Below the pieces are notes generated by a model. It saw only the letters and a list, made by a program, of their open reading frames with translations, had not been told where the DNA came from and ran no database searches. From positions 1-47,317 of the forward strand of contig DASSFK010000071.1 of NCBI GenBank assembly GCA_035694565.1: DNA of 47,317 bases. The letters are read 5' to 3'. The first letter of the stretch is position 1, and each line of letters opens with the position of its first letter. The translations under genes were made by a program, and so were the position numbers. The stretch comes from Sphingomicrobium sp. Lineage in GTDB: Bacteria; Pseudomonadota; Alphaproteobacteria; Sphingomonadales; Sphingomonadaceae. Below, piece by piece: positions 2,283-37,678 of the stretch.

Positions 2283-3353
2283 TCAGCGGCAGGCCACCGC
2301 GACTTTCGACGACGGCCAGATCGAGTTGAGAATAGCCGCCAACCGCGCACCTCCGATGATCACCTGCCTCGCCTGCACAGAGCGCCGGTCTGCGTTGTAT
2401 TGTGGCTTGTCGATAAACTCGACGTCCCAGCGGCCGGAAGCCGTGGCGTCCGGCCTAAAGCGCATGCCGTTGTAAGCGGCGCGCGCAGCAAGGATGGTTT
2501 CGCTCGCCCATACTTCCGGCGGATCCACCGTCGGATTGGGAAGCGGCGCGATCAGGCAGCCACTCTTGATGGCATTCGCGCTCGGCGTCGATCCAATGCT
2601 CGAGGAAACCGTGTCCCAGGCATGATGAAGATTATCGCTCTCCTCGCCGGGCGAGAGGAGGAGGTAGTTCCCGCCGTGCATCTCGACGCCGGAATCATCC
2701 GTCTCCAGCCCCGCGGTATCCAGGTAGATAGCGCCGACGTGGAGCGGTTGATGAAGGTCGCCGACGAGATGGGCGAGAAGCAGCAATGCTTCCCGCTTCG
2801 TGGCAAGGGCAAAGGGCGCGGGAATGTCGCACGTCTGCGATGGCTTGCACTTCAGGCGCGCGACCGCCGCCCGAATGCCATGCACGACGTCATTGTCGGA
2901 AGTGCCAATGTAAGTCGGCTTATAGTCGGAATGAATGTGCACGTTGACGTCGGCGAAATGGAAGCTCTGGTGACATTTGAGCGGACGGCCGCCGTAAAGG
3001 CAGTTCGTCCAGTTCCTCTCCGCATAAGCAATCATCTTTTCCTGCTCGGCCGCGCTCTCGAATGCGACGCAAACCTGCGGCGTGTATCGATCATGCTCAT
3101 AGGAAAATTCCCCGGTCGAACTTCGATCGACGCTCCGAACGCAGTCGGGCCAGACCGCCGCCGCGCCAAGGCTCACATTCGGTCCGAGAATCTGCCGCAC
3201 ACGATTGCGCGCATTCGGGTTGAGCAGGAGCCAAGCGAGATTACCGACATACTGGTGGCCGGGCGAACCCCACGCCACGGCGGGACTGGAGGGCGCAAGA
3301 ACAACTGCAAACGCCGCGGCGGCCCGCATGATTCGGCCCTGTAGAAATTTCAT
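2283..3353 (-). CDS. Secreted S1/P1 family nuclease
   Basis: Signal peptide ending AVA then mature WGSPGH; AAVWPD, HFAD, HLVGDLHQPLH, GGN and NLHHAWD are the S1/P1 Zn-ligand motifs; RBS GGGGG upstream of 3353. Confidence 0.9.
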   Translation of the reverse strand: MKFLQGRIMRAAAAFAVVLAPSSPAVAWGSPGHQYVGNLAWLLLNPNARNRVRQILGPNVSLGAAAVWPDCVRSVDRSSTGEFSYEHDRYTPQVCVAFESAAEQEKMIAYAERNWTNCLYGGRPLKCHQSFHFADVNVHIHSDYKPTYIGTSDNDVVHGIRAAVARLKCKPSQTCDIPAPFALATKREALLLLAHLVGDLHQPLHVGAIYLDTAGLETDDSGVEMHGGNYLLLSPGEESDNLHHAWDTVSSSIGSTPSANAIKSGCLIAPLPNPTVDPPEVWASETILAARAAYNGMRFRPDATASGRWDVEFIDKPQYNADRRSVQARQVIIGGARLAAILNSIWPSSKVAVACR

Positions 3354-3389
3354 TTGTGCCCCCTTTCGACCTGCCGGACCGAGCGCGGA

Positions 3390-4817
3390 TCAACCCTCCC
3401 GTGCGTAAAGCTGTGCGATGTAGGCCCGGTCACTTTGTGAGAGTTCATTCCCCGCAACGAAGCTCTTGCCGTTCCTGAGAACCCGCGGCGGCAGCGGGAA
3501 GCTCATCACCGAGTTAAAATCGACGGGTCTCGAGCCTGGATAAGCTGCGGTATCGAAGAACATCTTGCTGATCTGGTCGCCGCTCATGTGCATCGTCCCT
3601 TGAAAGTAAGCCATGAGCGCGTCCCGGTTATAATATTGCTGAGCCTGGGGGTTTTGGAACTCATGCACGAGACCGAGCGAATGACCGATCTCATGGAGGA
3701 AGGCCGTCCTCGCCCAGGCGTCTCCGATTGGATGGCCAAGCCAGATTGTCGGCTCGTCGGGCAGGCGCTGCTGCGCATTGCGTCCGACGTAGGACCAGCT
3801 GGCTCCATCATTGGCGAATTTCGCCCGGATGTCGGAGTCCCCGGACCGAACGTAGCTGACGTGGAGGTTAGCGTATTTGAGCCACTCCCCCATTGACTCC
3901 TCGAACAGCTGCCTTTCCGCGGGCCCACCATTCAAAAACCTGACCCGAATGGTTGAGCCGGCCGGCCAGAGGGCGGCATTCGCGCCAGGCTGAAGTGCAC
4001 GGCCTTCCTCGAAACCGAGCTTGCGCAAGGTTGGTGACGGACTGCTCTCACCTACGTTCCTCAAGTCGAAGCTTGCTATTGCGATGCCGACCACCAGTGG
4101 CTGCTTCGTCTGCATCCTCGTGCTCGAAACGAAGGTGCCGCCGCTTTCTATGACTGCCTCTTTGCCCTTGTGGCCGAACATCCGTTGGAGACTTGCAGCG
4201 AATCCGGTCTGACCTTCCCTTCGAAAGCGATACTCGAAGCTCGTGGGGCGCAGGATGCGGGTGATCACGGTCCTGTTTGGGTCGCGTAGCGCCGCGGCCA
4301 GATCCGCCTGTCCCGCGACGGCCTGCTGCAACGAAGCCAAGGGCGCCTCAAGGATCATTATGTCCTTCATCACCAGTTCGAAACTCTGGACGCCCTTCGC
4401 ACGCGCTTCCGCGCCGATGCGCGCCGGGAGGGCACCCGAACGAAGTCCGGCGTCGATCGTATCGGTGATTGTCACGTCGTAGGGGCCGGTCTCCTGAAAG
4501 AGTCCGCCGGCGGAGGGGCCCAGAACTCTCGCCGACCGCTCATAGAGCATGACGTCACCCGAACGCGGCGCATCGGGCGCCGCGGCCGGCCATTGAACGA
4601 TATCGCCCGGAAGAAAGCCGCCGCGCGCAGGAACGAGGAAGATGAAATTCTGCTTCTCGACCCAGTCCTGGAGCGTTTTGGTTTCATTGCGAGGCCAGAA
4701 ATAGCCAGCGAGAAGCAGGATGAGGGCGGCACCAGCCGCAGCCAATGCGATCCAAATACCCTTGCTCCGCCCAAATCGGGCGGAGCGCCTTGCGCCCCGG
4801 CTGCGCGCAACGGTCAT
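3390..4817 (-). CDS. TM-anchored protein: putative gasdermin-like domain plus C-terminal metzincin (M12/astacin-like) Zn-metalloprotease
   Basis: ATG at 4817 overlaps the upstream stop (ATGA); basic N-terminus then TM helix IWIALAAAGAALILLLAGYFW; protease motifs LWPAGSTIRVRF, SDIR, SWSYVG, HEIGHSLGLVHEFQ and Met-turn SVMSF. The protease call is strong; the gasdermin call is pattern-based. Confidence 0.8.
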   Translation of the reverse strand: MTVARSRGARRSARFGRSKGIWIALAAAGAALILLLAGYFWPRNETKTLQDWVEKQNFIFLVPARGGFLPGDIVQWPAAAPDAPRSGDVMLYERSARVLGPSAGGLFQETGPYDVTITDTIDAGLRSGALPARIGAEARAKGVQSFELVMKDIMILEAPLASLQQAVAGQADLAAALRDPNRTVITRILRPTSFEYRFRREGQTGFAASLQRMFGHKGKEAVIESGGTFVSSTRMQTKQPLVVGIAIASFDLRNVGESSPSPTLRKLGFEEGRALQPGANAALWPAGSTIRVRFLNGGPAERQLFEESMGEWLKYANLHVSYVRSGDSDIRAKFANDGASWSYVGRNAQQRLPDEPTIWLGHPIGDAWARTAFLHEIGHSLGLVHEFQNPQAQQYYNRDALMAYFQGTMHMSGDQISKMFFDTAAYPGSRPVDFNSVMSFPLPPRVLRNGKSFVAGNELSQSDRAYIAQLYAREG

Positions 4818-6145
4818 GCCGTCATGGCCATCGCGACAACTTTCCCGCAAGCAGGCGTCGCGACATTGTTGTGCGCGTCAACGCCGTTGGCCGCGACGAC
4901 GAAAGTATCCGCGAGGACGAGGTTGACCTTACCTTTTTCAAAGGCGAGCGCCGCGGGGTCTGCCCTGACGGTCGCTCCCGCAGGCAGACCCTGAGGCCCG
5001 TTTGCTCCCATGGCCCCGAATGGGTCGTCGGCGCCGCCGATCGATTTGCTGGTGTCACCCGACAGGCGCGATGCGAGGGGATAGGCGATGGTGCACGCCT
5101 TGTCGTTATGCGTGTGCGTATAGACGATCGCTCCGCGCGGTTTGCCCAGTGCGCTCGCGAACACTGCATTCCCGCCCGTCAGCGCATTGTGCGAATACGC
5201 GCCCTGCAGGAGCGTGAGGCTCTGGAATTCGAGATTTGGTGGCACTGCGAGGTTCGCGGCCGCGGACGTGACCAGCCGCGCTCCGAAGCTGTGGCCGACC
5301 AGATGAAGTTTCAGTGTTCGTGGCGGGCGAAGCGCGCCAAGCACCTGTGCCAGGCAACGACCCACGAGGCCCGCCCTCTTCTTCATCGTGTAGTAGGTCA
5401 GCTTGTTGAGTGCCCACAGGACACCACTGCGGGTCCCCTGAAACGTCGCGAGAACGACGTTACCAAGACCTTTGGCGCCGCCGGTGCCGGCCGGCACATC
5501 AAACACTGGCGGCATGGCAAGCGCGTTGATCGCGTCGTCGGCCCCGAACAGGGTTTTGGTGCCCTTGAAATTCTCACGGTCCTCGAGAAGCTCCGAGTCC
5601 TCGGTCTCCTCGTCGACCCCCAGATGCTCCCTGGCTGTTTTGAAAAAGTCGAATGCCGCCTGATCTCCTCCGCCCGCGTCAAGCGCCCGTGCCGCCGCCT
5701 TGATGGCCTCAGCCGCATCCGGTCCGACGAACCCGTCGAGCAAAGCGAGCTTCTCCTGGAAGCTATTCTCACCGATGTCGCCAATTGAAGGGTCGTCGCC
5801 GACCGACTTGGTACCGCCGCCGCTTTGCGGACGAACTTCGGTCGCCTCGGCGCCATCGTAGTCGGCGTCATACTCCTTGGCCGGCCAGAGCACGCCGACG
5901 ACCACGAATTCTTCCGGCTTGGCGCCCCCTTGCGCGAGCGTCTGCAGGGCATTCGTCCAAAGACCGGTGTAGAGATCGGCCGCATTGCGCTCGTCGTTGT
6001 TCCAGCCATGAGAGATGACGACAAGGTGGCGCACCTTGTCTCCGGCGATGGCGTCGGCGAGGCGCTTGGCGGCACTTGGATCGTGCAGGGCCCCCGCTTC
6101 ATCGAAGTGGAGCCACAGGAATGGTGAACCGGCGATTGCATCCAT
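4814..6145 (-). CDS. Alpha/beta-fold hydrolase (esterase/lipase-like)
   Basis: Oxyanion motif SHGWNN; nucleophile elbow GHSFG; candidate acid in HNDKA and His in DAHNN; RBS GAGGA. Confidence 0.8.
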   Translation of the reverse strand: MDAIAGSPFLWLHFDEAGALHDPSAAKRLADAIAGDKVRHLVVISHGWNNDERNAADLYTGLWTNALQTLAQGGAKPEEFVVVGVLWPAKEYDADYDGAEATEVRPQSGGGTKSVGDDPSIGDIGENSFQEKLALLDGFVGPDAAEAIKAAARALDAGGGDQAAFDFFKTAREHLGVDEETEDSELLEDRENFKGTKTLFGADDAINALAMPPVFDVPAGTGGAKGLGNVVLATFQGTRSGVLWALNKLTYYTMKKRAGLVGRCLAQVLGALRPPRTLKLHLVGHSFGARLVTSAAANLAVPPNLEFQSLTLLQGAYSHNALTGGNAVFASALGKPRGAIVYTHTHNDKACTIAYPLASRLSGDTSKSIGGADDPFGAMGANGPQGLPAGATVRADPAALAFEKGKVNLVLADTFVVAANGVDAHNNVATPACGKVVAMAMTA

Positions 6146-6154
6146 GGATTCCTC

Positions 6155-7765
6155 CTAGACGGACTGGAGTGCGCGCATCAGGTCGATGAGGCCGGCACCC
6201 TGGAATTCGGGGCGCCGTCCCAGGTCGGTGGCGCTCTTCGTGAAGATCTCCTTCACCCGCATCGGGTCGCCCCGGAATTCGCGGCGCACGGAAAGGAAGG
6301 CCGCGATGCAGCCCGAGACATGGGGCGCGGCCATGCTCGTTCCCGAATCTTCGCGATAGGGCGCCTCTCCAGGGTTCGCGGGGTCCATTTGGGCCGCGGA
6401 CACGATCCGCTCGCCCGGTGCCACCAGATCGGGCTTCATCCGGCCGTCCGACGTCGGGCCTTTTGACGAGAAATATGAGATCCCAAATCCGTGTGGAGAA
6501 TCGCGATGCGTCGAGCCGACGGTGATCGCGAGATTTGAATTTCCGGGATCGTTGATTGTCGCGAGATGCGCCGCGCGCTCGACTTCCCGACTAAGCGTCT
6601 GAACCGTGCCGTAGCCCCCGTTGCCGGCAGCGACGACAACGATGACGCCGTTCCGCACAAGACGATCGACCTCCTGGCACAGGGGGCTTCGGCCCGCCGC
6701 AAACCAGCGGGCGTCGAACGTGTACCCGAGGCTGAGATTGAGGCCGTGGATGCGCACGTTCGCGCCATAGTCGTTCGCCTTGTGGATGTAGCCAATTGCC
6801 GCCAGCAGCAGGGCGACGTCTCCTCCGCTGCTCGACTGCAGGACCTTGAGGCTGAGAAGTTTGCACTTGGGTGCCATGCCCGTGATCGTCGCGCGCGTGT
6901 CGTTGGTCTCGACGTTGACCTGAATGTCGGAGACGCGGACGTTCTGCTTGATCACGATCCTCAGCGCATCAGCCTTGCAGGTCTCTCCAGCGATGATCCC
7001 GGCGACATGAGTGCCGTGACCATCGGTATCGACGAGCGGCTGCGGAAGCGGGTCGCTGAAATCGTGATGCTCGAGGCCATTGGGTAACTCGAGCGTTTTG
7101 TTGGTCAAGAAGTGGGGATGTGTCCCGTCGATACCCGTGTCTGCAACGGCCCATACGATACCTTCACCCGCCGCTTCGAAGGCGACCCTTGCAGCGTCGC
7201 ATTTTACGGTTCTGACCGATTCAAAGACGTTCCGGTTCAGCGAATGGTTGAGCCAGATTTTGTGGACGAGCGGTACCGGCGCAGCACATTCATCTTGCGC
7301 CTGATTCCCGCTGCTACGCGGCGCATCGGCATCCTTGGGTGCCGGAAGGGTGACTGTTGCCTGGGACAGCCGCAGAATGGTTTCGTAGCCTAGGCAGCCG
7401 AACACGTAATAGTCGGTCCAAACCGAGTTGCCGTCGTCGACTTTGTCGTCAGTTGCGAACAGGTGGAGCTCGGCGAGCATCTCCCGAAATGCTGAAGTCA
7501 TGGTTCGCTCAAGAGCAGCGTGCGCGTTCTTTGTTGGAGTCGTCCGGGTATCGTTCAGGAAGATGTGGAGGATGAAGTCACGAGCCTGGCGTGCCCCAAG
7601 CGGGAAGCCCGCGTTGGCCTCGATGATCACCGGGAACTTGCCGAGGGCACCCGTCTTCTTCTTGAGCTTCGCCCGCTCTTTCGCGATTTCGGCGAGGAGA
7701 TCTCCAGCGAGCCGCGTCCTCGCAAGGTCCTCGCGAAGTTCATCGGGCGTCGGTTCGTCAGCCAT
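6155..7765 (-). CDS. S8 family serine peptidase (subtilase) with long N-terminal pro-region, no signal peptide
   Basis: Triad VADTGID / HGTHVAG / GTSMAAP; oxyanion AAGNGG; KPDLVAPG; GGAG RBS before the ATG at 7765. Confidence 0.95.
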   Translation of the reverse strand: MADEPTPDELREDLARTRLAGDLLAEIAKERAKLKKKTGALGKFPVIIEANAGFPLGARQARDFILHIFLNDTRTTPTKNAHAALERTMTSAFREMLAELHLFATDDKVDDGNSVWTDYYVFGCLGYETILRLSQATVTLPAPKDADAPRSSGNQAQDECAAPVPLVHKIWLNHSLNRNVFESVRTVKCDAARVAFEAAGEGIVWAVADTGIDGTHPHFLTNKTLELPNGLEHHDFSDPLPQPLVDTDGHGTHVAGIIAGETCKADALRIVIKQNVRVSDIQVNVETNDTRATITGMAPKCKLLSLKVLQSSSGGDVALLLAAIGYIHKANDYGANVRIHGLNLSLGYTFDARWFAAGRSPLCQEVDRLVRNGVIVVVAAGNGGYGTVQTLSREVERAAHLATINDPGNSNLAITVGSTHRDSPHGFGISYFSSKGPTSDGRMKPDLVAPGERIVSAAQMDPANPGEAPYREDSGTSMAAPHVSGCIAAFLSVRREFRGDPMRVKEIFTKSATDLGRRPEFQGAGLIDLMRALQSV

Positions 7766-7795
7766 CGTCGTTCTCCGCAACGAAACAAGGCGTGG

Positions 7796-8884
7796 TCATT
7801 TGGGCCGGATCACGTCGCTTGAGATGTTCTTGAGCACAGCCTCGAGGTCAGCCTTGAGCGCGCCTGTGTCAGTCCCCGCGGCGGCGCCATCGATCTGCGC
7901 TTTGAGCTCGAGCGCCTTGTCCCGATATTTCAGGTCGGACACGAGCTCGACTCCGGTCATGATCGTGTCGATCGTCGCCTGCGCGCCATCCTTCATCTGG
8001 AAGAAGCGCTGGAGAACCGAAGCGCTCGCAACGGTCGGCTTGAACTTCTCCAGTCCCTGCCGGGGCTTTCCATCGATGCTGATGACGACATAGGGCGCGT
8101 CGCCGTCATAAACGCGTCCAGCGGCATCAATCAGCCCTCGTTGCGGGTCGTACTTGAAGGCCGACGCGTCGAAATCGTCCTCGGTGATGATGCGGAATTC
8201 CGCCTCGGCTACCGGAATGCCCGGCACATCGAAGTCGATGGATCGCGTGACGCTGAATGCAGGCCGGCCGTCGAACAAGGCTTCCCCGAGTCCTCCGGCA
8301 AGCTTCACTACGCCAGCAGCGCCCATGAGATAGCCGGCCGCCGGGAGGAGTATCGGCAGACCCGAAAGGTTCGTGAACGCGCTCGACACCTTATCGAAGA
8401 GCTCGCCCGGGAAATTGTCGACGGCGAACTCGACAGTCACGATCTGGGAGTCCGTTAGGACGGCGGGCGAATAGGAGATGAGGGCTGTGCCTTCCGCAAA
8501 GGCACTGGGCATGCCCACGCGCGAATGCGATTGTTTCCCCTGGGCGATGAAATTGAGCGCACGCGCTGAAGCGCTGAATACATCGTAGTTCTTGACGCCG
8601 GACACGACCGCGATGTCCTTGCTGCCGCCGCCGAGAAGTCCCTTCTTCGGGAAGCGCCCGGTGTAGACGTCGCGAAGCATGACTGTAAGCGGAAGGCCGC
8701 GTCCGATGGGGGTGAAGGCGACAGGTGCGCCCGCCGCGGTGTCCCCCACAGAAAGGGCCTTGCCGCCGCTGAACTCGATTGTCGCTGGTCGATCGCTTTC
8801 TGGAGCCGCATTGAACTCGGTGGCCCGCAAGCGATACTCGGACTCGCTGACGACATGTTCGTCGAGCACTCGGTAGATACCCAT
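7796..8884 (-). CDS. Hypothetical protein (beta-rich core, Gly/Ala hydrophobic hairpin, C-terminal helical segment)
   Basis: Strong RBS GAGGAGG before the ATG at 8884; coding-like codon usage; in operon; no family recognised. Confidence 0.75.
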   Translation of the reverse strand: MGIYRVLDEHVVSESEYRLRATEFNAAPESDRPATIEFSGGKALSVGDTAAGAPVAFTPIGRGLPLTVMLRDVYTGRFPKKGLLGGGSKDIAVVSGVKNYDVFSASARALNFIAQGKQSHSRVGMPSAFAEGTALISYSPAVLTDSQIVTVEFAVDNFPGELFDKVSSAFTNLSGLPILLPAAGYLMGAAGVVKLAGGLGEALFDGRPAFSVTRSIDFDVPGIPVAEAEFRIITEDDFDASAFKYDPQRGLIDAAGRVYDGDAPYVVISIDGKPRQGLEKFKPTVASASVLQRFFQMKDGAQATIDTIMTGVELVSDLKYRDKALELKAQIDGAAAGTDTGALKADLEAVLKNISSDVIRPK

Positions 8885-8975
8885 TCGTTGCCTCCTCAGA
8901 CCAGGGTCGGCTTTCCACTCACTTCGTTGCCCTTCGCTCAAGCCACTCCGCTCACCCCTCTGACGCGTGCGCGCA

Positions 8976-11252
8976 TCAGCGGAGCAGCTGCAGCAATGTC
9001 TCTTCGTCTAGCGAACCCGCTTCAGGAGGCCGTCCGACCGTCGACGCAATCGCCTTGTTCTTGGTGAGGCCCTTGATGACCTCCGGCAGGTCGTCGGCTA
9101 CGAATGGTCCCTGGGGCACACCGGCCTTGTTGGGCCGCCATGCCGCGATCGCCTCCGGAAACTCGATCAGATGCTCGGCGAGCTGCGGCCACCGCAGCGC
9201 CAGCATCGCCCAGCGCGCACGGGCTTCGGACGCCACCATCCGCCCTTCGATGAACCCGCGCGCCTGCGCGATGGCGACATCGTTGACGAGGCGTTTCATC
9301 GCCCTTGGATTGGCCTCGACGAGGCCGAGCAGCCTCCGCAGCCGGCTTTCGGTCACCGCCTGTGCAGCGGGCGTCGTGATCTGGATTGCCGCTTCCTCGC
9401 GAAACGCCCGGCGCCTCGCCTCATCGGTTTCCGGCACGCTGTCGACGGCAGCCTTTAATTGCGCTTCTGTTTGAAGGTTCGAAAGGGCGCTTCGAGCTTC
9501 GTTCCGGATGTCGTCATTGACGACAGCAGGTCCGCCGCCGCCACCGAGCGTAAGCCTATCGAGGAACTGGCCTTTGATCTCCTCGGTGAGCTTGGGCATG
9601 CCCGCGGAGATCTGGAACATCTTTTCGAGGAAGAGATAGCCGAGCGGCCGTCCGGGCTCGCCGATCTGGGAAGTGAAATCAGCGTAGCGCTTTTCGAACG
9701 CAGCGCAGATCCACTTTCGATCGGCGGCAGCGACGTAGGTGACTGGCTTGCCCTTGAACAGGATCTGGATGCCCTCGAGCAGATCGACGACGACGTCGGC
9801 ATCGCAGCGGTCGAGGTCGTCGATGATGATGACGAGGGGCTCGGCGACCGCATCGACCACGGCATCAAAGAGCCTGACCACCGGCGCCATCGCGTCCGCC
9901 TTGAGCTCCGAATAGGCCTGGGCGGCCCGGCTCGACCCGAACATCAAGGAACGCCCATAGGCGTAGATGGCCGCCGAAGCCGTCGCCACTGCGGCGACGA
10001 TCTTCACTGCGGTGTCGATCGATGTCCGGTCGCTTCCGATCTCGAGAATGACAAGCCCGAACACTGCCGCGATGATCACGAGCGGGAGGATGTCAGCGCG
10101 CAACCGCCACCACCACCACCGCAGCCTCAGGCGCCATTTTGCGCGGGACGTAAGCGGCCGATCCTTGTCCTGGAGGACCGACGAATAGATTGTACGAAGG
10201 AAGGGCCACCAAGGCGGGCGCCGCTTGTTGTGCGCCCAGGCGTTGAACCAGATCACCCGCATGGGCTTGCCCGTCCCCTCTGCTTTCTCGAGATGCTTTT
10301 CGAGAAAGTTGAGCACCGAGGATTTGCCCGAACCCCAGCGGCCATGGATATGGAGCATGAAGGCGGGGCTATCGGCAGACTCTGCTCCCGCCTCCTCGCG
10401 CAGTTGACGAATGCGCTCGGCGAGAACTCTCGCAAAGGGCTCGCGCTCGAGGAGGTCTCGGACAGCGGGAACGTCCGTCTGGGTGCGATAATGGTCGTCC
10501 GGTTCCGGAGATGGCTGAGCCTTGTCGACTATGGGTTTGTCAGGCGTCTCTCGCGGGGTCGTCTTCGGCGGCACGGGCGTGACCGTGGTCTCGGCGTCGC
10601 CAAAGCCGTCGGCCTCGGCGAGAAGACGCTTCCACTCGTCCGACCGCTCGCCTCGCTCTGGTCGCTGCAGCGTGTAGTCGACGATGATTTTGCGAAGCTC
10701 GGCGAGGTCTGCAGGCGTCGGCGTCGTCTTGAGCGGCGTGAACGCACTTCCAGTATCCTTGCTCAGGACGAAGAGGAAATGACGAAGATCCACGACATCC
10801 CGGCCGACCGTCGCCCGAGCGATCTCTTGCGCCTCCTGCATCACCTCGCGGACCGACCCTGAGGCGACAAGCTGCCGGCCCGAGGCAAGCTCCTTTCGGA
10901 TTTCGGCGCCATTGTCCTGACGACCGAGCACTTCCTCGATGGCCGGGTCCAGGCGCCGTGCCCATTGCGCGACCCAGCTCGACGAATTGTGCTCTTTAGG
11001 AGCGGAGAGACCGAGTTCGAGAATGCCCATCGTCAGCGCCCTGCGGCTGAGGAGTGGCCCGCGCTCATGGACGTGGGCGTAGCGCGAGCCACGCTGGATC
11101 GATTCGACGAGGGCGGATGCGTTCGGGTTCACGACCGAGCGCAGGAAATCGTCGACCTCGTCCCCCAGCCCGCCGCTCCTCGGCAACGGGGGCTCTTCGC
11201 GTGGAAGCGAGTATGCACGCGTGCCGCTCGGGGCTCCGCTTCTCGCGCTCAT
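8976..11252 (-). CDS. KAP-family P-loop NTPase with N-terminal ClpN-like region
   Basis: DLLEREPFA; Walker A GRWGSGKS; FNAW; two inserted TM helices; Walker B IIIDDLDRC; FLEKMFQ; NPRAMKRLVN. N-terminal SVREVMQEAQEIARATVGRDVVDLRHFLFVL resembles a Clp repeat. Confidence 0.9.
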   Translation of the reverse strand: MSARSGAPSGTRAYSLPREEPPLPRSGGLGDEVDDFLRSVVNPNASALVESIQRGSRYAHVHERGPLLSRRALTMGILELGLSAPKEHNSSSWVAQWARRLDPAIEEVLGRQDNGAEIRKELASGRQLVASGSVREVMQEAQEIARATVGRDVVDLRHFLFVLSKDTGSAFTPLKTTPTPADLAELRKIIVDYTLQRPERGERSDEWKRLLAEADGFGDAETTVTPVPPKTTPRETPDKPIVDKAQPSPEPDDHYRTQTDVPAVRDLLEREPFARVLAERIRQLREEAGAESADSPAFMLHIHGRWGSGKSSVLNFLEKHLEKAEGTGKPMRVIWFNAWAHNKRRPPWWPFLRTIYSSVLQDKDRPLTSRAKWRLRLRWWWWRLRADILPLVIIAAVFGLVILEIGSDRTSIDTAVKIVAAVATASAAIYAYGRSLMFGSSRAAQAYSELKADAMAPVVRLFDAVVDAVAEPLVIIIDDLDRCDADVVVDLLEGIQILFKGKPVTYVAAADRKWICAAFEKRYADFTSQIGEPGRPLGYLFLEKMFQISAGMPKLTEEIKGQFLDRLTLGGGGGPAVVNDDIRNEARSALSNLQTEAQLKAAVDSVPETDEARRRAFREEAAIQITTPAAQAVTESRLRRLLGLVEANPRAMKRLVNDVAIAQARGFIEGRMVASEARARWAMLALRWPQLAEHLIEFPEAIAAWRPNKAGVPQGPFVADDLPEVIKGLTKNKAIASTVGRPPEAGSLDEETLLQLLR

Positions 11253-11261
11253 AGCCGCACA

Positions 11262-12809
11262 CTACCCATTGGCTGCCGCCGCACGCTTCGCGAGCAGACG
11301 CATCAGCGCTTCGAAGCGAGACTCCACCAAGGCCAGCCCGAGCTCGCCGCCATTGATCGCCCGGCGGTCGTCGCGAAGCCCAGGCGTTGCTGCAAATCGG
11401 TCGAGCTTGTGGCTCTTCCAAAACCAGCCCGCGCCCGCGCACCCGCCCTCCTTGGTCCGGAGGTAGTTGGGCACGTCGTCGACCGGGATTCCGATCTCGT
11501 CGGCGAGCCCCTGGCAATTGGCACGACCGGTCAATTGCTTGGGGCCGTAGCCGCGAAACTTCCAGCCATCGCCGGGCTTGGTATTGCCGAGATTCTTGCG
11601 GCCCCACTCCCCGCCGTAGAGAATGTTGGCGATCTCTTCCTGCCGTTCCTTCGAGAGCGGCGCTTCACCGCGCTTGCGCCCGAGGCGCCGCGCTTCGGCT
11701 TCGCTGATGCGATGCCTGCCGAAGTTCTTGAGCAGCCCTTCGACACTGTAGTTGAGGCTTTCGGTCAAGCGCGTAAGTCCCGCCGATTCGACCGCGATAT
11801 TGGCAAGGAAGCTGCAGAGTTCGCGGTCCGTGTCGATCCCGAACCTGCGGCAGGCGGCCTGCATCGAACCAATCCACTGCTCGAGCTCGGAGGCAGTGTT
11901 CTCGGGGAAAGCAGTGCGCAGGAATTCGAGGTCAATCTGCGCTAGCCACGGGTTATCGCTTGCCTTCGCGCCTGGCTTGGCGGCTGCTCCCGCCGCTGCC
12001 GCGGCCGCCTTCACCAGCGCGGCCTGCGCCGGAGCGTCCGGCTCATCGTCCATCGCGCCCCAGGTGATCGGTCCGACGATCCCGTCGGGCACGAGATCGT
12101 GCGCTCGCTGCCAGGCCCGAAGACGCGCCTCGGTGCGCGGCCCGAAGATCCCGTCCTCCGTCAGGCCCAGAACGTGCTGGAGTAATTTCACCTCGTCCGA
12201 GCGGCTGCCGCGACGAAGTGTCGGGCGGCCTCCGGGATCTCCAGCGGGGATAGGTGGCGGCGGCGATCTTCCGAGAAGGACCTCGGCGACCTGCGCACGG
12301 AATGCGGCCATGTCAAAGGTGGGATCGACCTTGCGACCGAGCGGAAGCGCATATTCCTTGTGCCCGCAGCACATGTTCGCCGAGGCGCCAATGTGGGCGA
12401 GGATCGCTGCGACGCCCCGCCGATACGCCTCAAGCTGAACTTCTGGCCACGCGTCGAGCGGCTCGCCGCTATTCTCCGCCTCTATTCCGACAAAACTTGA
12501 GTTGCCGGTCCGGATTCCCTGCCACTCGCCACGCCCCGCGTGATTGGCCCGACCTGCGGCGACGACATAATAGGTTCCATCGCGGCCAAGCCCGAGATTG
12601 CACAGAGGACCGATGAGGCCTGCGCGCCCTCGGATGAGAACGTCGAGCGTCGGCATGTTGCCGCCCTGGCGGGTCGCCGTGTGGTGACACATGACGCCTC
12701 GAACCCGGCCCATTTCGGCGCGGCCGCGCGTCCGCCAGTCGTGTGTTTCCGCAACCTTGAGCCCCGCTTGCTGCAGCACGTCCGAAAGCCAGACCAGCGC
12801 GTAGGTCAT
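11262..12809 (-). CDS. Modular peptidoglycan hydrolase: Amidase_2 + PG-binding domain + GH19 lysozyme/chitinase-like domain
   Basis: Amidase motifs VMCHHTA, ANHAG, NSSFVGIE, GHKE..KVDP; PG-binding LRRGS..LQ..DGIFGPRT..DGIVGPITW; GH19 motifs FLANIAVES, ESLNYS, GDGWKFRGYGPKQLTG, AINGG. Confidence 0.9.
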   Translation of the reverse strand: MTYALVWLSDVLQQAGLKVAETHDWRTRGRAEMGRVRGVMCHHTATRQGGNMPTLDVLIRGRAGLIGPLCNLGLGRDGTYYVVAAGRANHAGRGEWQGIRTGNSSFVGIEAENSGEPLDAWPEVQLEAYRRGVAAILAHIGASANMCCGHKEYALPLGRKVDPTFDMAAFRAQVAEVLLGRSPPPPIPAGDPGGRPTLRRGSRSDEVKLLQHVLGLTEDGIFGPRTEARLRAWQRAHDLVPDGIVGPITWGAMDDEPDAPAQAALVKAAAAAAGAAAKPGAKASDNPWLAQIDLEFLRTAFPENTASELEQWIGSMQAACRRFGIDTDRELCSFLANIAVESAGLTRLTESLNYSVEGLLKNFGRHRISEAEARRLGRKRGEAPLSKERQEEIANILYGGEWGRKNLGNTKPGDGWKFRGYGPKQLTGRANCQGLADEIGIPVDDVPNYLRTKEGGCAGAGWFWKSHKLDRFAATPGLRDDRRAINGGELGLALVESRFEALMRLLAKRAAAANG

Positions 12810-13909
12810 GGTCGGGCGACCCCCGATTCAACGCCTCCTGAGGCGCGCGGGAGGTCCTCGTCCGCAGTCACTTCCGAATCCTCGAGCGCGGCCTCGGAAG
12901 GGCAGCCGTCTTCTTCACCGTCGTCAGCCAGAGGCCCGTTCTCATCGGCGTCCGCCACTTCCGGGCCGGCGCCTTTCTGGGTTGGCATGATCGGTGGGGG
13001 CACGCCCAGGGGCGGTGTATCAGCCCGCCTGACGATGGGCTGCTCGCCCGTGCGCACGTCGGCTTTGGCGAGAAGGTCGGGAACAAGCCGTTCCGCGAAA
13101 CCGGCGATGAAGCTCACGACGAGGATATGGATGCGCGCATATTCGTCGATCGACGTGTCGCCCAGATGGAATCGAACGAACCCCGAGAGGAGGAGCGCGA
13201 TCATGACCACGCCACCGATCGCCCCGACGACGACGCGCAGGACGGCGTCCATCAGGTTCGCTGTCCGATAGAGATCGGTGAGGATGGTTCGCCCGCGGAT
13301 ACCGAGGGCAATCGAGAAGAACGCGCCAATCGCGCCGGCGGCGAAGCCGTGCCAGAGATCGACGGCGTGCTCGACGCAGAAGACGCGATCGGCCGTGCTC
13401 TGGCATGGCCCTGCGGCATCCAGCAGCATGGCCAGAGCAGCGAAGATGCCGATCGCGATAACAGTCGCAAACGCGGCCATCAGATATTCAAAGCGCGACC
13501 AGCCGACCCGTTCGTTGAGGATGTCCTGCTTGACCTGTTCGAGAAGAACACCGGCGCCGGCCAGGTCGCCCTCGAGCGCAACATGGAGAGCATCGGCTAC
13601 ACGGCGATCATAGCGCTCGGCTTTGCTTCGCAGCTTCTTGCCGTTGTGGATCCTGAACAGGAGGAAGCGCTTTGAATCCGGTGCAGAGCGCCAGCCGTCG
13701 ATCAGGCCGGCGATCTCGCCGCGGATCGGAGCAAGCTGGCTGATTGCCTTGCGCTGCGGGTTGGAGCTGGCCGTCTCGTCGGCAAACTGGACGAGCACGC
13801 GCTGGGCCGTCCTGTAGACCGCGAATTCGGGAGGCTTGCGCGCGTAGATGCAGACGATTGTTGCGCCAAGCGCGTCCGATCCGTCGACCGCCAGATCGGC
13901 AATGTTCAC
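12806..13909 (-). CDS. Hypothetical membrane protein (soluble N-domain, 4 TM helices, acidic tail)
   Basis: Four hydrophobic segments including AGAIGAFFSI and FIAGFAERLVP; stop overlaps the amidase ATG; GTG start at 13909 chosen, 13993 also possible. Confidence 0.75.
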   Translation of the reverse strand: MNIADLAVDGSDALGATIVCIYARKPPEFAVYRTAQRVLVQFADETASSNPQRKAISQLAPIRGEIAGLIDGWRSAPDSKRFLLFRIHNGKKLRSKAERYDRRVADALHVALEGDLAGAGVLLEQVKQDILNERVGWSRFEYLMAAFATVIAIGIFAALAMLLDAAGPCQSTADRVFCVEHAVDLWHGFAAGAIGAFFSIALGIRGRTILTDLYRTANLMDAVLRVVVGAIGGVVMIALLLSGFVRFHLGDTSIDEYARIHILVVSFIAGFAERLVPDLLAKADVRTGEQPIVRRADTPPLGVPPPIMPTQKGAGPEVADADENGPLADDGEEDGCPSEAALEDSEVTADEDLPRASGGVESGVARP

Positions 13910-14204: not shown

Positions 14205-14340
14205 AATGTCCGCTTTGCGCCCATGCGCGTTGTTCCGAGCCTAAGCGCTTTCGACCTAGAACAGACCTCTCGATGTCGGCCAAAAAATCAACTTAACTTA
14301 GCTGGTATCCCTTAATCGGGCTTCCGCCCACCATCGCATT
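14205..14340 (-). repeat. Cluster of degenerate REP-like palindromes (R4-R7), opposite orientation to R1-R3
   Basis: Reverse complements: AACAACGCGCATGGGCGCAAAGCGGACATT (14205-14234), GAGGTCTGTTCTAGGTCGAAAGCGCTTAGG (14240-14269), AATGCGATGGTGGGCGGAAGCCCGATT (14314-14340); half copy at 14272-14280. Confidence 0.5.
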
Positions 14341-15020
14341 TAGCTGACTTTCGCATGGGCAGCGATGGCGGCCCGCCTGCGAACGTGCAGCTTCTCAAGG
14401 ATGTTATGGACGTGATTTTTCACGGTGGCCGGACCTATTCGCAAGTCGAGCGCAATTTCCTTATTGGATAACCCTTTGGAGATCAGGGAAGCGACTTCCA
14501 ATTCACGGGAAGTAAGTGACGAAATTCCCTTCAACGAACGAGACCTGGTGGCGAGAGATGCCAGACGCTCGCACAGGATTGCACTGACCTTAGGCGAGCA
14601 GCGAAACTCTCCGTTGAGCGCCCCGACCACAGCTTGGACCAGCGTATCAATTGAGCTGCTTTCATCAACAAAAGCGGCAATTCCTGCCTCTGCGCAGGCG
14701 ACAATGTGAGCATCGGATCCACAAACACCGAAGCCCACAAGTACCGAGTTTTCGTGGCTCTGCTTGATCTGTCGGGCAAGTGAAAGCCCATCTTCGTTCG
14801 AAGCATCCAATATGATTGCGTCCGGAGCATTGCTGACAACTTCCACCTCAGCGTGGACTGGCTCTGTGCTGGCTACAACTTGTAGCCGGCCATCAGTCGA
14901 AAGGCTGGAAGCTAGCCCTTGCCGGTACAGGAGAACCGGACTGATCAGCATCACCCGGGCCAACGGCAAGGATCGACTTTCCGCGTGACCATTCAGAATG
15001 GCGGGTTCGATATCAGCCAT
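14340..15020 (-). CDS. NarL/LuxR-family transcriptional regulator (atypical receiver + LuxR HTH)
   Basis: LTSRELEVASLISKGLSNKEIA..L.I...TVKNHVHNILEKL HTH; REC-like N-domain; GGAGG RBS before the ATG at 15020. Confidence 0.9.
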   Translation of the reverse strand: MADIEPAILNGHAESRSLPLARVMLISPVLLYRQGLASSLSTDGRLQVVASTEPVHAEVEVVSNAPDAIILDASNEDGLSLARQIKQSHENSVLVGFGVCGSDAHIVACAEAGIAAFVDESSSIDTLVQAVVGALNGEFRCSPKVSAILCERLASLATRSRSLKGISSLTSRELEVASLISKGLSNKEIALDLRIGPATVKNHVHNILEKLHVRRRAAIAAHAKVS

Positions 15021-15371
15021 CGGCACCTCCGAACGTCAGGAGAACGGAATTTCTGTTGGCGCACGATCGGCACTTCGGGCTTGCCTATGACTTTTTAACG
15101 TGGATTAGGAATTTTGGAAATAGCCGACTGGTCAGTACCTCTGGCCATCTCGTTCGATCCACATTCACCCGGTCAAGCGGCCCAGTCCATTGGGCACAGT
15201 CTTTGGGGATTGGCAGTCTAAAGGAATGAAACGCTTTGGCTAGCAGCCGCGCCACGGCCAGTCTGGCTGGTCGTTAGGCGCCCTACCAAATGATGGTCGC
15301 GGATTACCCGATTGGCCGATGGTCAGCCTTCGTCTCGAGGCGCAAAATTCACGCACGAGAGGAACTGTGCT
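15021..15371. promoter_or_regulatory. Divergent promoter region between the regulator and the eCIS operon
   Basis: 351-bp lower-GC intergenic region between divergent genes; recurring motif TASCCGAYTGGYC. Confidence 0.5.
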
Positions 15372-16970
15372 ATGGCCACCGCCGTAAGCTATCCCGGTGT
15401 GTATGTCGAAGAGATCCCGAGCGGCGTCCGCACCATTACCGGTGTGGCTACTTCCATCACTGCCTTTTTGGGTCGGGCAGCCAAGGGCCCAGTTGGTGAA
15501 ACGGTCTTCATCAATAGTTTCGGCGATTTCGAACGACAATTCGGTCCGCTAACTGCTGACTGTCCGCTGGCTTACGCAGTTCGCGATTTCTACCTCAACG
15601 GCGGCAGCCAGGCGATCATCGTCCGCGTATTCAAGGCCGATGGTGCAGGCGGCGACAAGCCGGCCGGCATCAAGATGACAAATCTGGAGCTTTCGGCTGC
15701 GTCGCCCGGCGGTTGGGGCAACATGCTGCGCGTTAGGGTCGACAACAAAGTCTCTGAGGACGTGGCCAATCGTTACGGATTGGCCAAAGCCGACCTGTTC
15801 AACCTCACGGTCCGCGACACAAAGACAGAAGCGACCGAGACATTTTTGAACCTCACCGCCAAGGAAAGCCCTCGGCGCGTCGATCGCGTGCTCAACACGG
15901 AATCGGCGCTAGTTCGAGTGGCGGAAGGATTCACGCTGACCGATGTCCCCCCTCCCCATGGAGATGCGGGCGCAGGAAAGACGATTTGGGATGATGATAC
16001 AGCGTCCTCGAAGGTCGCGAACGCTGATAAAGGCAAGGACAGCGCGGGACTGGATCGGGGAGCCTACCAAGGTGACACCGCCAAGCAGACAGGTGGACTG
16101 CAGGCACTGCTCAAGACTGACCTTTTCAACCTCCTTTGCATCCCGGGGGATGTGCGCGGTGCGACCCTGCCCAAGGAGGTCTATCAGGATGCGATTGACG
16201 TTTGCGTAAAGCGGCGGGCCATGCTGATCGTTGATCCGCCGGCCGAATGGAAGAGCGCCAACCAGATCGCCAAGGACAGCGCCAAGGCATTGACGGACCT
16301 TGGGCTTTCCGGGCCAGCGGCCCGTAACGCCGCAATCTTCTTCCCCCGGCTTATCGAGTCCGACCCAAAGCTCGACGGTGCGCTCGACGAATTCCCGCCA
16401 TCCGGCGCCGTCGCCGGCCTCTTCGCTCGAACGGATGCAACCCGCGGGGTCTGGAAGGCGCCAGCCGGGGTCGATGCGGCCCTCGCCGGGGTGCAAGCCC
16501 TGTCGGTGACCCTGACGGACGAGGAGAATGGTCAGCTCAACCCGTTAGGCGTCAATTGCCTTCGCGCCTTTCCGATCGTCGGTCGCATTTCCTGGGGCTC
16601 CCGAACGATGCGCGGCGCGGACCTGCTAGCCGACGAATATAAATATGTCCCTGTTCGCCGGCTTGCCCTCTACATCGAGGAAAGCCTGTTCCGCGGCCTC
16701 AAGTGGGTGGTGTTCGAGCCCAATGATGAGCCGCTTTGGGCTCAAATCCGGCTCAATGTGGGCGCCTTCATGAATGGCCTTTTCCGCCAGGGCGCGTTTC
16801 AGGGCATGAGCCCGCGCGATGCCTATTTCGTCAAATGCGACAGGGAGACCACGACCCAGAACGACATAAACCTGGGCATCGTCAATGTCGTGGTCGGCTT
16901 CGCGCCGCTGAAGCCTGCTGAGTTCGTCATCATCAAGCTGCAGCAGATGGCCGGGCAGATCTCGATCTGA
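15372..16970 (+). CDS. eCIS contractile tail sheath protein (Afp2/3/4-like)
   Basis: YPGVYVEEIPSG; RGVWKAPAG; LNPLGVNCLR; YVPVRRL; VFEPNDEPLW; GFAPLKPAEFV. Confidence 0.95.
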   Translation: MATAVSYPGVYVEEIPSGVRTITGVATSITAFLGRAAKGPVGETVFINSFGDFERQFGPLTADCPLAYAVRDFYLNGGSQAIIVRVFKADGAGGDKPAGIKMTNLELSAASPGGWGNMLRVRVDNKVSEDVANRYGLAKADLFNLTVRDTKTEATETFLNLTAKESPRRVDRVLNTESALVRVAEGFTLTDVPPPHGDAGAGKTIWDDDTASSKVANADKGKDSAGLDRGAYQGDTAKQTGGLQALLKTDLFNLLCIPGDVRGATLPKEVYQDAIDVCVKRRAMLIVDPPAEWKSANQIAKDSAKALTDLGLSGPAARNAAIFFPRLIESDPKLDGALDEFPPSGAVAGLFARTDATRGVWKAPAGVDAALAGVQALSVTLTDEENGQLNPLGVNCLRAFPIVGRISWGSRTMRGADLLADEYKYVPVRRLALYIEESLFRGLKWVVFEPNDEPLWAQIRLNVGAFMNGLFRQGAFQGMSPRDAYFVKCDRETTTQNDINLGIVNVVVGFAPLKPAEFVIIKLQQMAGQISI

Positions 16971-17007
16971 CGCCGACTAGAAGGACAGATTCAAGGAGGA
17001 AGCGATC

Positions 17008-17532
17008 GTGGCCCAGTTCACCGTCAATGCCGAGCGCTTCGATCCCTACAAAAACTTCAAGTTCCGTGTGAACTGGGACGGCAGATATGTTGCCGGGGTC
17101 AGCAAGGTAAGCGCGCTCAAACGAACCACCGAAGTCGTTAAACATCGCGATGGCGGGGATCCAAGCAGCAGTCGTAAGTCGCCGGGCCGCACCGAGTTCG
17201 AAGCGATCACCCTAGAGCGAGGCGTCACCCACGACAAAGAATTCGAACAATGGGCAAACAAGGTATGGAGCCTGGGCGCCGGGCTGGGCGGGGAAGTATC
17301 CCTCAAGGACTTCCGGAAGAACATCCTGATCGAGGTCTATAACGAGGCCGGCCAACTCGCCATGACCTATAAGGTGTTGCGCGCTTGGGTCTCTGAATTT
17401 CAGGCGCTGCCAGATCTCGACGCTAACGCAAATGCGGTAGCGATCCAGCATCTCAAGCTTGAGAATGAAGGCTGGATCCGTGACGTCGAAGTCGCGGAGC
17501 CAGCCGAGCCGACCTTTACCATCCCCGCCTAA
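17008..17532 (+). CDS. eCIS tail tube protein (T4 gp19-like, Afp1/5-like)
   Basis: DPYKNFKFRV; KSPGRTEFEAITLERGVT; LDANANAVAIQHLKLENEG; AAGGAGG RBS; GTG start. Confidence 0.95.
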   Translation: MAQFTVNAERFDPYKNFKFRVNWDGRYVAGVSKVSALKRTTEVVKHRDGGDPSSSRKSPGRTEFEAITLERGVTHDKEFEQWANKVWSLGAGLGGEVSLKDFRKNILIEVYNEAGQLAMTYKVLRAWVSEFQALPDLDANANAVAIQHLKLENEGWIRDVEVAEPAEPTFTIPA

Positions 17533-17560
17533 TCTGGGTGGTGCTGGGCTGGAGGAACGC

Positions 17561-18289
17561 ATGACTCCCCTTGGCGCGTTCGAGTTACTCGATGTTTGGG
17601 AGGAGGGACGGGCGCAAAGCCCGGTGCGTCGAGCCCTTTTGCTGTTGAAAGCGGCCTGGCCCGAATATGACAGCAACGGATGGGGGAAGCTATCCATCGG
17701 AATGCGCGATCAATGGCTGGTTGCGCTCCGCACCCGAATGTTCGGCACCCACTTCGAACTGCTTGCTGATTGTCCCGCCTGCGGAGCAGCGCTCGAGACC
17801 GGTTTTCACGCCAGCGACTTGCCGTGCTTGCAGCCGCGCGCTGAAAGCTACGAATTATCCTGGGACGGATTGCACGTCGCCTACCGCCTTCCGACCAGCG
17901 ACGACCTTATCGATGTTCTTGAGACCAACGAAATCGCCGCACCGGACCAAGCCATTCTTGCACGTTGCGTCCAGGCAGTCAGGCAAAATCGGCGTAAGTA
18001 TACTGGGCACAAGCTAAGTGCCGAACTGCGCGAGCACATCGAGCAAGCAATGGCAGAGCAAGACATCGCGGCGCAGATCGATGTGGGCCTTGTGTGCCAG
18101 GCCTGCGGCCACTCGTTTGAGCGAAGGTTCGACATCGTCGATCATCTCTGGGGTGAGATTGGCGATTGGGCCGAGCGCATCCTTGCCGACGTGCACCTGC
18201 TGGCTGGCGCCTATGGGTGGAGCGAAGAGGTAGTACTCAATCTAAGTCCCGCTCGGCGCCAACATTACATCGAACTGCTGGCGGCATGA
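17561..18289 (+). CDS. eCIS-associated baseplate-hub/tail chaperone-like protein with two CxxC pairs
   Basis: CPAC and CQAC; YRLPTSDDL; C-terminal VHLLAGAYGWSEEVVLNLSPARRQHYIEL; position after the tube gene; GGAGG RBS. Confidence 0.75.
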   Translation: MTPLGAFELLDVWEEGRAQSPVRRALLLLKAAWPEYDSNGWGKLSIGMRDQWLVALRTRMFGTHFELLADCPACGAALETGFHASDLPCLQPRAESYELSWDGLHVAYRLPTSDDLIDVLETNEIAAPDQAILARCVQAVRQNRRKYTGHKLSAELREHIEQAMAEQDIAAQIDVGLVCQACGHSFERRFDIVDHLWGEIGDWAERILADVHLLAGAYGWSEEVVLNLSPARRQHYIELLAA

Positions 18290-22648: not shown

Positions 22649-22950
22649 TGGCTCGCCGGGGAATCCGCGGCCCGGCCGATGTCGAGACACTTCGCTCCGA
22701 CAGGCCAGTATCGATCAAAATCGATCGGCTGACTTTCGATGGCCTGACGCTGTCGGCGGGTGAGGCCCGGCGAGCTGGAGCCGCGCTGGAACTGGAACTG
22801 TCGCGGTTGGCAGTCGATGGCCACTGGCCTCACCAAGGAGTGGCAATCCCCTTGGCCAGGCCGCCCGTGTTGACAATTACGCCCGGGTCGCCGGAGCAGC
22901 TAGGCAGGCTCATCGCTCGCGCATTGTTCAAAACCGTGAGGGAAGCGTGA
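22645..22950 (+). CDS. Small eCIS-associated hypothetical protein
   Basis: Overlaps both neighbours; VSIKIDRLTFDG and EQLGRLIARALF. Confidence 0.7.
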   Translation: MMARRGIRGPADVETLRSDRPVSIKIDRLTFDGLTLSAGEARRAGAALELELSRLAVDGHWPHQGVAIPLARPPVLTITPGSPEQLGRLIARALFKTVREA

Positions 22951-31789: not shown

Positions 31790-31817
31790 TGGCGCCCGCG
31801 ACACATGGAGCCGGTCG

Positions 31818-32441: not shown

Positions 32442-32454
32442 GGAAGGAAAGGCG

Positions 32455-32781
32455 ATGACGACCTACAATTTTCCGCCGACTAGCCGCTACTACGGCCTTC
32501 CGTTAGCGAACTTCGAGCCGGTCGAGGGCGACCCGGTGGTCTATCTGACCCGCCGCTTCGTGCCCGGATCGGACCGCTTCGCGACGACCGGCTGGCACAT
32601 CGTCACCGAAGGTGAGCGCATGGACATCGTCGCGGCGGGCGCACTGGGCGATGCCGAGGCGTTCTGGCGGATCTGCGACGCCAACGACGCCATGCGGCCC
32701 GACGACCTCACCGCCGAGATCGGCCGGCGGATCCGGCTGACCATGCCCGAGGGCCTGCCCGGTCCGGCGACGAACGGGTGA
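32455..32781 (+). CDS. LysM-like baseplate protein (Afp7 C-terminal-like)
   Basis: TSRY; HIVTEGERMDIVAAGALGDAEAFWRICDAN; AGGAAGG RBS. Confidence 0.85.
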   Translation: MTTYNFPPTSRYYGLPLANFEPVEGDPVVYLTRRFVPGSDRFATTGWHIVTEGERMDIVAAGALGDAEAFWRICDANDAMRPDDLTAEIGRRIRLTMPEGLPGPATNG

Positions 32782-32794
32782 CGGAGGCGGCCGC

Positions 32795-34452: not shown

Positions 34453-34464
34453 GGAGCGACGGCG

Positions 34465-37668: not shown

Positions 37669-37678
37669 GAGACGAAAG

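Follow-up and report, generated by a model that had tools for sequence, protein, structure and literature searches.

Bacterial gasdermins (bGSDMs; Johnson et al., 10.1101/2021.06.07.447441; PDB 7n50-7n52 and 8sl0) combine a pore-forming fold with finger hairpins, an exposed loop before a short tail and a dedicated protease, and most of them carry a palmitoylated cysteine and are served by a separate caspase, trypsin or subtilase. In a preprint on pyroptolysins, immune gasdermins are described as acting from inside cells, typically on the inner leaflet (10.64898/2026.10.05.756811). The protein analyzed here is encoded by g7, the seventh gene of an eight-gene run (g1–g8) in a 47,317-nt stretch of Sphingomicrobium sp. 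DNA (GCA_035694565.1, contig DASSFK010000071.1, positions 1 to 47,317), which as a whole is called the window. Like bGSDMs, the g7 protein has a dedicated protease; it is predicted to share their fold and finger hairpins and may also share the exposed loop before a short tail, but it has a predicted N-terminal transmembrane (TM) anchor, a predicted periplasmic location and no palmitoyl-cysteine. The bGSDM protease is encoded next door, whereas that of g7 is present in cis and is a zinc protease of family M12A, a class not mentioned for bGSDMs in the part of Johnson et al. available. Because the anchor was found in 12/12 family sequences and the protease lies in cis, rather than the protein being soluble and stand-alone, g7 is filed as a gasdermin-fold variant and not as a canonical bGSDM. 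The interpretation that we lean towards is that the eight genes are separately travelling modules in a composite island and that g7, as a gasdermin variant, would be a one-gene cell-death switch. The features of g7 are as follows.

3390..4817, minus strand: g7, 475 amino acid residues; main finding of the analysis; a basic N-tail is followed by a single TM helix, a predicted gasdermin-fold domain and a zinc protease of the myroilysin-like M12A type
4704..4760, minus strand: predicted TM anchor of g7, residues 20-38, with 7 Lys/Arg ahead of it
3996..4682, minus strand: predicted gasdermin-fold domain of g7, residues 46-274; contains a pair of amphipathic finger hairpins and a loop of variable sequence (about residues 251-263), followed by a tail ending at the conserved Arg273
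3390..3977, minus strand: M12A domain of g7; HEIGHSLGLVH zinc motif and SVM Met-turn; matches myroilysin (5zjk) at E 7e-23

The AlphaFold2 model of the g7 N-domain, built on 10 sequences, had a predicted local distance difference test (pLDDT) score of 79. A Foldseek search with this model placed chains of bacterial gasdermins, and no others, in ranks 1-8 (best E 1.9e-6). Gasdermins also filled ranks 1-14 in VIA, where the best match was 7n50 (Z 10.4, root-mean-square deviation (rmsd) 4.3 Å over 180 residues) and cytolysins came next at Z 5.6. The separate Atlas model of the relative P0059 matched the PF26164 Bact_GSDM cluster with a template-modelling score (TM-score) of 0.57, the first row being a TamB cluster, and the PADLOC bGSDM model gave weak matches in 5/9 homologues (best E 4.9e-7). 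The gasdermin-like label proposed for g7 in the first-pass annotation of the window is thus borne out by the modelled fold and by these weak homologue matches.

The four finger-strand segments showed beta-amphipathic moments of 0.33-0.55, which were matched by 7-43 of 5000 shuffles, whereas two control helices in the same test were matched by 1280 and 3978 of 5000; the segments were selected after the profile had been viewed and include stretches modelled as helices. The amphipathicity is kept in both finger regions of the g7 family. With the tail removed (model residues 7-212), a four-copy model scored 0.62 as compared with 0.06 for the best of three controls. The mark for self-association was passed by 20/30 solved pairs and 1/23 single chains, a calibration made on two copies only that holds roughly here, and the pass may reflect resemblance to the gasdermin pores already solved. 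The runs of the four-copy model shared at least 71% of contacts, partner pLDDT was at least 61, and the copies met through two different faces, head-to-tail. The fold, the amphipathic fingers and the head-to-tail self-association of g7 are predictions.

A search of 1.84 billion representatives with the g7 N-domain returned 11 relatives at E 0.001, to which P0059 and the gene at locus L038 are added; P0064, encoded at locus L039, belongs to the same family. A TM helix, a gasdermin-like domain and a C-terminal protease are common to g7 and 10 full-length relatives. Among the full-length members, g7 included, the protease fused to the N-domain is M12A in nine and caspase-like in two (P0065 and P0069). 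The HExxHxxGxxH motif is intact in 9/9 M12A sequences, and the caspase His/Cys motifs are present in 2/2 caspase fusions, so that the gasdermin domain is linked in cis to a dedicated protease with intact catalytic motifs. An Arg lies exactly 11 residues ahead of the Trp-Pro that starts the catalytic domain (Arg-x10-WP) in 8/8 full-length M12A fusions tested. P0069 has an extra long C-terminal region that is beta-propeller-like by eye; if it is a beta-propeller, this TM-gasdermin-caspase fusion would hold sensor, protease and pore in one chain.

A single hydrophobic helix precedes helix 1 by 10-15 residues in all 12 family sequences examined. More Lys and Arg residues were found before this helix than after it in 10/12 sequences, the other two being ties, which suggests an uncleaved N-in anchor with the gasdermin domain and the protease in the periplasm. 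At their ends the anchors carry aromatic and charged residues, and no obvious signal-peptidase motif was seen in them by eye. Cysteine is absent from the first 300 residues of g7 and occurs near the anchor in just 1/11 full-length family members. Inspection by eye for a conserved twin-arginine motif showed none, and Tat export was therefore rejected. In the database gene call for g7 (P0058) the start falls inside the TM helix; the start at position 4817 is favoured, as the homologues and the ATGA overlap with g6 agree on it.

The structural alignment extends to residue 249 of 7n50 and residue 261 of 7n52, in their tail region, and the g7 chain continues from there into the protease. The loop before the tail is variable across the family. 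In both caspase fusions it contains Leu-Gly, the dipeptide cut in the bGSDM of Runella (10.1101/2021.06.07.447441), and this loop feature is shared by bGSDMs and the caspase-fused members.

Other described proteins resemble g7 in part. Gasdermin and protease in one chain have been noted among AlphaFold DB cluster fusions (Barrio-Hernandez et al., PMC10584675; A0A2C5ZLK3), although the TM anchor, the M12A partner and the topology are not described in the part of that paper available; the comparison is by description only, and those clusters may include the g7 family. Pyroptolysins (10.64898/2026.10.05.756811) and a bGSDM-LysM fusion (PMC13475620) likewise join a gasdermin fold to a large C-terminal domain, but that domain is CDC-like Ig in the former and LysM-like in the latter, neither being a protease, and pyroptolysins are described as soluble sterol-targeting toxins, unlike the anchored g7. 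Myroilysin (M12A; PDB 5zjk, 5gwd and 5czw) resembles g7 in its catalytic domain, zinc motif and Met-turn. The cysteine-switch propeptide that is a feature of myroilysin (PMC9629494) is lacking in g7, where the gasdermin domain and the TM anchor precede the protease; the M12A fusions contain 0 Cys in 9/9 sequences, and hence the switch is absent. Neither a TM-anchored nor an M12A-fused gasdermin was found in the literature searched, the supplementary gasdermin lists of which could include the g7 family. Gasdermin–protease fusions as such were noted before (PMC10584675); it is the anchored form for which that literature gave no precedent. The family is missed in defence surveys because it mostly escapes Pfam and PADLOC and is named ‘astacin’ where annotated.

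For the topology, the targeting role of the TM helix, the inhibition by the tail, the maturation site, the loop cleavage and the trigger we infer the following sequence of events. The g7 protein would lie latent in the inner membrane, TM-anchored and N-in/C-out, with the gasdermin domain and the protease facing the periplasm; the TM helix would replace the missing palmitoyl-cysteine as membrane-targeting device, and the tail after the variable loop would inhibit the gasdermin domain. The Arg-x10-Trp-Pro junction could be the maturation site of the protease. The trigger would most likely be an envelope breach by a phage, a predator or an injection system, through which the protease would be clustered or matured. 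A cut within the loop would then strip off tail and protease, and the freed, still tethered gasdermin domains would oligomerise and insert into the cell's own inner membrane, where the pores would kill the cell. If true, this would be a one-gene, envelope-triggered bacterial pyroptosis with a topology opposite to that of the described suicide gasdermins. A TM-tethered gasdermin with a metalloprotease in cis would extend the known classes of activating protease and provide another means of membrane targeting, perhaps also another compartment for sensing, and g7, as a single 1.4-kb gene, is easy to test.

The genes around g7 and their context in the window are listed below.

12806..13909, minus strand: g1, protein with several TM segments, its usual neighbour being a peptidoglycan hydrolase (hydropathy and neighbourhoods)
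11262..12809, minus strand: g2, amidase–peptidoglycan-binding–endolysin-like peptidoglycan hydrolase, no export signal (Amidase_2 and PG_binding_1, Pfam)
8976..11252, minus strand: g3, KAP-family NTPase (PF07693, 97 bits) with Walker A (GRWGSGKS) and Walker B (IIIDDLD) motifs; its N-terminus resembles ClpN weakly
7796..8884, minus strand: g4, 362 residues, predicted C2-like sandwich with a hydrophobic hairpin insert, unannotated family (structure model)
6155..7765, minus strand: g5, subtilase (S8) with intact Asp/His/Ser triad, no export signal (Pfam, PADLOC)
4814..6145, minus strand: g6, alpha/beta hydrolase with GHSFG and a helical insert between Gly-rich linkers, partner of g5 (weak Pfam match)
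2283..3353, minus strand: g8, S1/P1 nuclease with a signal-peptide-like N-terminus, predicted exported (Pfam)
14340..15026, minus strand: response regulator of the NarL/LuxR type, separating the run from the injection-system cluster (context)
15312..44687, plus strand: extracellular contractile injection system (eCIS) cluster, divergent from the run; sheath, tube, Pvc16, AAA, eCIS-core proteins, baseplate and DUF6519 (context)
44680..45895, both strands: serine-recombinase fragment (plus) and tRNA-Arg (minus, 45819-45895), the likely island end (context)

All eight open reading frames of the run are present on the minus strand between 2283 and 13909, and the junctions from g1 to g8 measure -4 (ATGA), 9, 91, 30, 9, -4 (ATGA) and 36 bp. 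The first-pass annotation had described eight co-oriented genes with gaps of 91 bp or less and two ATGA overlaps, which the frames and junctions confirm, and its domain calls mostly hold, the weak ones being ClpN on g3 and GH19 on g2; the divergent eCIS cluster and the LuxR regulator are not mentioned in it. A single Logan contig of dataset X1, possibly the source sample, covers positions 2062-16000 with one letter differing, which makes misassembly unlikely; datasets X2-X4 gave short scattered pieces only, no listed piece usefully bridging genes. No sigma-70 promoter signal above chance was found. The Pfam scan left g1 and g4 without a family, and the PADLOC 2.0 scan of the eight genes matched g3 and g5 only. 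The annotation had proposed a DefenseFinder/PADLOC check; in PADLOC 2.0 these two genes match models, and no named multi-gene defence system has its full gene set in the run. The annotation had not recognised the combination as a named system, in agreement with the PADLOC and NCBIfam scans, and its view of the genes as conflict-type is supported.

To compare gene neighbourhoods, as the annotation had also suggested, 43 loci anchored on six of the genes were read (26 for g4, 5 for g5-g6, 9 for g1, 2 for g7 and 1 for g8), and co-occurrence was scored with tblastn (E 1e-5 or 1e-4). The most that any of the 43 loci carried was two of the run's genes (0/43 with more), and none held the eight-gene block. 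A lack of co-occurrence elsewhere, which the annotation had named among the things that would refute its reading, was thus seen as far as these loci reach. Judged by these neighbourhoods, the run is drawn from a pool of modules of the protease and lysis types and is not a conserved unit. The units would be g1→g2, g5→g6, the stand-alone KAP NTPase g3, the C2-like g4, the exported S1/P1 nuclease g8, and g7.

The conserved partner of the subtilase g5 is the hydrolase g6 and not the gasdermin g7. Directly downstream of g5, g6 was present in 18/22 plasmid records with a strong g5 match (14 from Rhizobium, the remainder from Sinorhizobium, Burkholderia and, in two cases, Rhodococcus); genome G796 also carries the pair, and at locus L031 it stands alone among housekeeping genes, with transporter and thiamine genes around it. 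In the class, g6 was found in 1/400 genomes. The GHSFG of g6 and the triad motifs of g5 are invariant, and no hydrophobic export signal was found in the g5 sequence. The identities of g5 and g6 correlate in rank (0.66, 10 non-independent pairs), a value given no weight as evidence. The g6 insert ends in A-x-G/F-L-G in 5/5 cases, which are candidate linkers; this pattern fits the preference of subtilisin. A profile of g6 searched against the PDB gave nothing below E 0.2. From this comparison, g5-g6 is most likely a separate cytoplasmic module in which a protease activates a hydrolase, like the zymogen module of Evans et al. (PMC12642450), with which it shares a conserved protease–alpha/beta-hydrolase gene pair and, in g6, an insert between Gly-rich linkers. 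The protease there is a caspase and here a subtilase, on which no sensor domain was recognised; the likeness is by description and not by LcHydrolase sequence.

For g3, the proposed ClpN-KAP architecture holds in its KAP part, whereas no ClpN match was obtained in g3 itself; a stand-alone KAP paralogue in the same genome (54% identical; L075, G000:C129:9051-11291) gave a weak Clp_N match (E 0.004) under the cut-off. The KAP domain is shared with the NTPases QatA (PADLOC E 5e-22) and PifA (E 8e-16), but g3 scores 86.6 bits against the NCBIfam QatA cut-off of 600 bits, and no Qat partner was found among the 10 genes scanned. No plasmid match to g3 was obtained. The nuclease g8 was found in 5/100 genomes of the genus, one of them full-length.

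The model of g4 has an inserted hydrophobic hairpin of low confidence and a C-terminal helical hairpin. Its best VIA match was the otoferlin C2A domain (Z 7.0, rmsd 3.0 over 117 residues), and Foldseek gave no match at E 0.001; the C2-like assignment, resting on the model, is a lead only. In 6/26 loci the g4 homologue has a gene for a protease of the S8, trypsin, caspase, C25 or papain type nearby, 107 of 180 candidate frames having been scanned, and the homologue P0030 is fused to astacin. No g4 was found in the 40 relatives searched. The g4 family (7796-8884; L002-L027; P0030) has no Pfam family, falls into many Atlas clusters, and has a variable N-terminal loop, a Gly-rich hydrophobic hairpin and five protease classes as neighbours or fusions. 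It is a candidate protease-activated membrane effector. Besides g7, the locus gives two further testable modules, the subtilase–hydrolase pair and the C2-like g4 family.

The first gene, called a protein of four TM segments in the annotation, has three segments that pass the hydropathy threshold, while a fourth hydrophobic stretch falls short of it. For g2, the amidase and peptidoglycan-binding domains stand; its C-terminal domain resembles the phage endolysin 4ok7 (E 2e-27), and the GH19 label goes back to weaker chitinase rows there. In 4/9 other g1 loci g1 and g2 are adjacent, and other peptidoglycan hydrolases lie within about 2 kb in two more; g1 was found in 6/400 genomes of the order. 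The two genes are most likely a separate wall-lysis pair, which may serve the eCIS.

The first-pass annotation had proposed a sensor-to-protease cascade through the whole run. In such an integrated system the KAP NTPase would sense infection and activate the subtilase, which would license g4, g6, g7 and other effectors. The tight junctions with two ATGA overlaps fit it, as do terminator-like sites that are not in excess within the run (7 observed, 11.9 expected), the best PADLOC model for g5 (‘subtilase’ PDLC03014, E 8.5e-57), an S8 gene adjoining one g4 homologue (L003) and the activation of fungal gasdermins by subtilisin-like proteases (PMC13475620). Against the cascade, the S8 at L003 is just 30% identical to g5, g3 has a stand-alone paralogue and no plasmid match, and g5-g6 occurs alone among housekeeping genes. 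Moreover, an anchor or signal segment is present at the N-terminus of g7 and of g8 but no export signal in g5, and g7 has its own protease. With no related locus holding more than two of the genes, the cascade is unsupported and we consider it quite improbable. The locus is a warning that genes packed in an island as closely as in an operon do not have to form a single system. Hardly better placed is an accessory role of the run for the eCIS, with g1-g2 as a holin/endolysin-like release cassette and the other genes as cargo or processing factors. The run and the eCIS are divergently adjacent with the LuxR regulator between them, g2 has a phage-endolysin-like domain and no export signal, and, among the g1-g2 pairs found, the closest one, at L049 (51% and 67%), is divergent to three eCIS-core genes and a type VI secretion system (T6SS). 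Against this, the sheath, tube, AAA and baseplate of this eCIS have no match in any other locus, the stretch read contains no injection genes in 3/4 other g1-g2 loci (the remaining one is that at the T6SS with eCIS-core genes), no g1 relatives were found in viral contigs, the T6SS needs no lysis, and g7 (TM-anchored) and g8 (signal-bearing) would be unlikely tube cargo. This role is improbable.

The preferred reading, of separate modules with g7 as a gasdermin variant, has points that weigh against it as well. Identity to solved gasdermins is just 9-14%, Foldseek TM-scores are 0.37-0.53 with high rmsd, and g7's own N-domain gave no Pfam, PADLOC or PDB match to gasdermins by sequence. The topology was taken from hydropathy and charge counts in unequal windows (up to 20 residues before the helix, 15 after), and the loop sequence is not conserved among the M12A fusions, so that it does not point to a cut site. 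Just two other g7 loci were readable, one of them 3.4 kb; while 28 of the 43 loci are at least 19 kb long, 15 are under 19 kb, and distant partners may be missed, as tblastn missed a known g1 homologue (L053). The ATGA overlap of g6 and g7 hints at a coupling that the modular reading leaves unexplained. The low identity and the absent palmitoyl-cysteine would also suit a g7 domain that is not a periplasm-side suicide pore: it could be cytoplasmic like ordinary bGSDMs, could serve an exported protease as a non-lytic pro-domain or tether, or could be shed outward against competitors like pyroptolysins. Caspase-like proteases are usually cytoplasmic, and M12A fusions without the cysteine switch need another latency device; a gasdermin fold repurposed as an outward toxin is described in 10.64898/2026.10.05.756811. 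These alternatives are together unlikely, since the finger amphipathicity is conserved, the head-to-tail self-association model passed, the anchors lack an obvious signal-peptidase motif, and two unrelated protease classes on the same domain fit a substrate logic better than a pro-domain logic. A new gasdermin class, with an inner-membrane TM anchor, a periplasmic location, its own zinc or caspase-like protease and an outer-leaflet insertion that kills on envelope breach, is put forward tentatively.

The g7 N-domain was found in 0/400 genomes of the order and in 0/401 genomes of the genus of G418, a set without a known positive. A second gasdermin in the genome of the window (G000) was sought, the best match being at E 0.08 with controls also matching, and none was found by the family profile. 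At L038, the only long outside g7 locus, the gene lies among a TM-NTPase gene, a peptidase-like gene (by eye) with an MBL hydrolase, and another M12A gene; the seven further genes of the run are all absent from it. There (L038:12472-18042) the metallopeptidase-like gene overlaps that of the MBL hydrolase (PADLOC LmuA, E 5e-23), followed by the second M12A gene; the pair may form a metalloprotease-MBL module that does not belong to any of the three protease clades in PMC12642450.

The eCIS cluster looks complete, and the closest named homologues of the genome are sphingomonads. One of its eCIS-core (PF13699) proteins has 2675 residues (22947-30974) and no other Pfam domain. L049 (3433-7833) and L055 carry a tandem of three eCIS-core genes, of which one has a GNAT domain, next to a T6SS with VgrG and divergent from a g1-g2 pair. 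Genes for a haem peroxidase with a cytochrome P450, DUF1353, DUF2272 and DUF3616 recur near different modules of the run (L034, L035, L017, L011 and L032), which suggests a shared island gene pool.

The serine recombinase has Recombinase and zinc-ribbon domains only and an early stop, runs into the 3' end of tRNA-Arg(TCT), and resembles an island integrase in decay. An att repeat was not found for the island, one 11-bp match being at chance level. The flanking dsbA was present in 36/40 genomes of the genus; the tallies for g4 (40 relatives), g8 (100) and dsbA (40) include genome G019. As dsbA is common, the run's genes are rare in relatives, and a recombinase fragment and tRNA-Arg lie at the far end, an acquired island is likely. 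A second dsbA follows the first in 6/11 relative loci examined and not in the window, where dsbA is at 484-1242; this suggests that the left edge of the island lies just after it.

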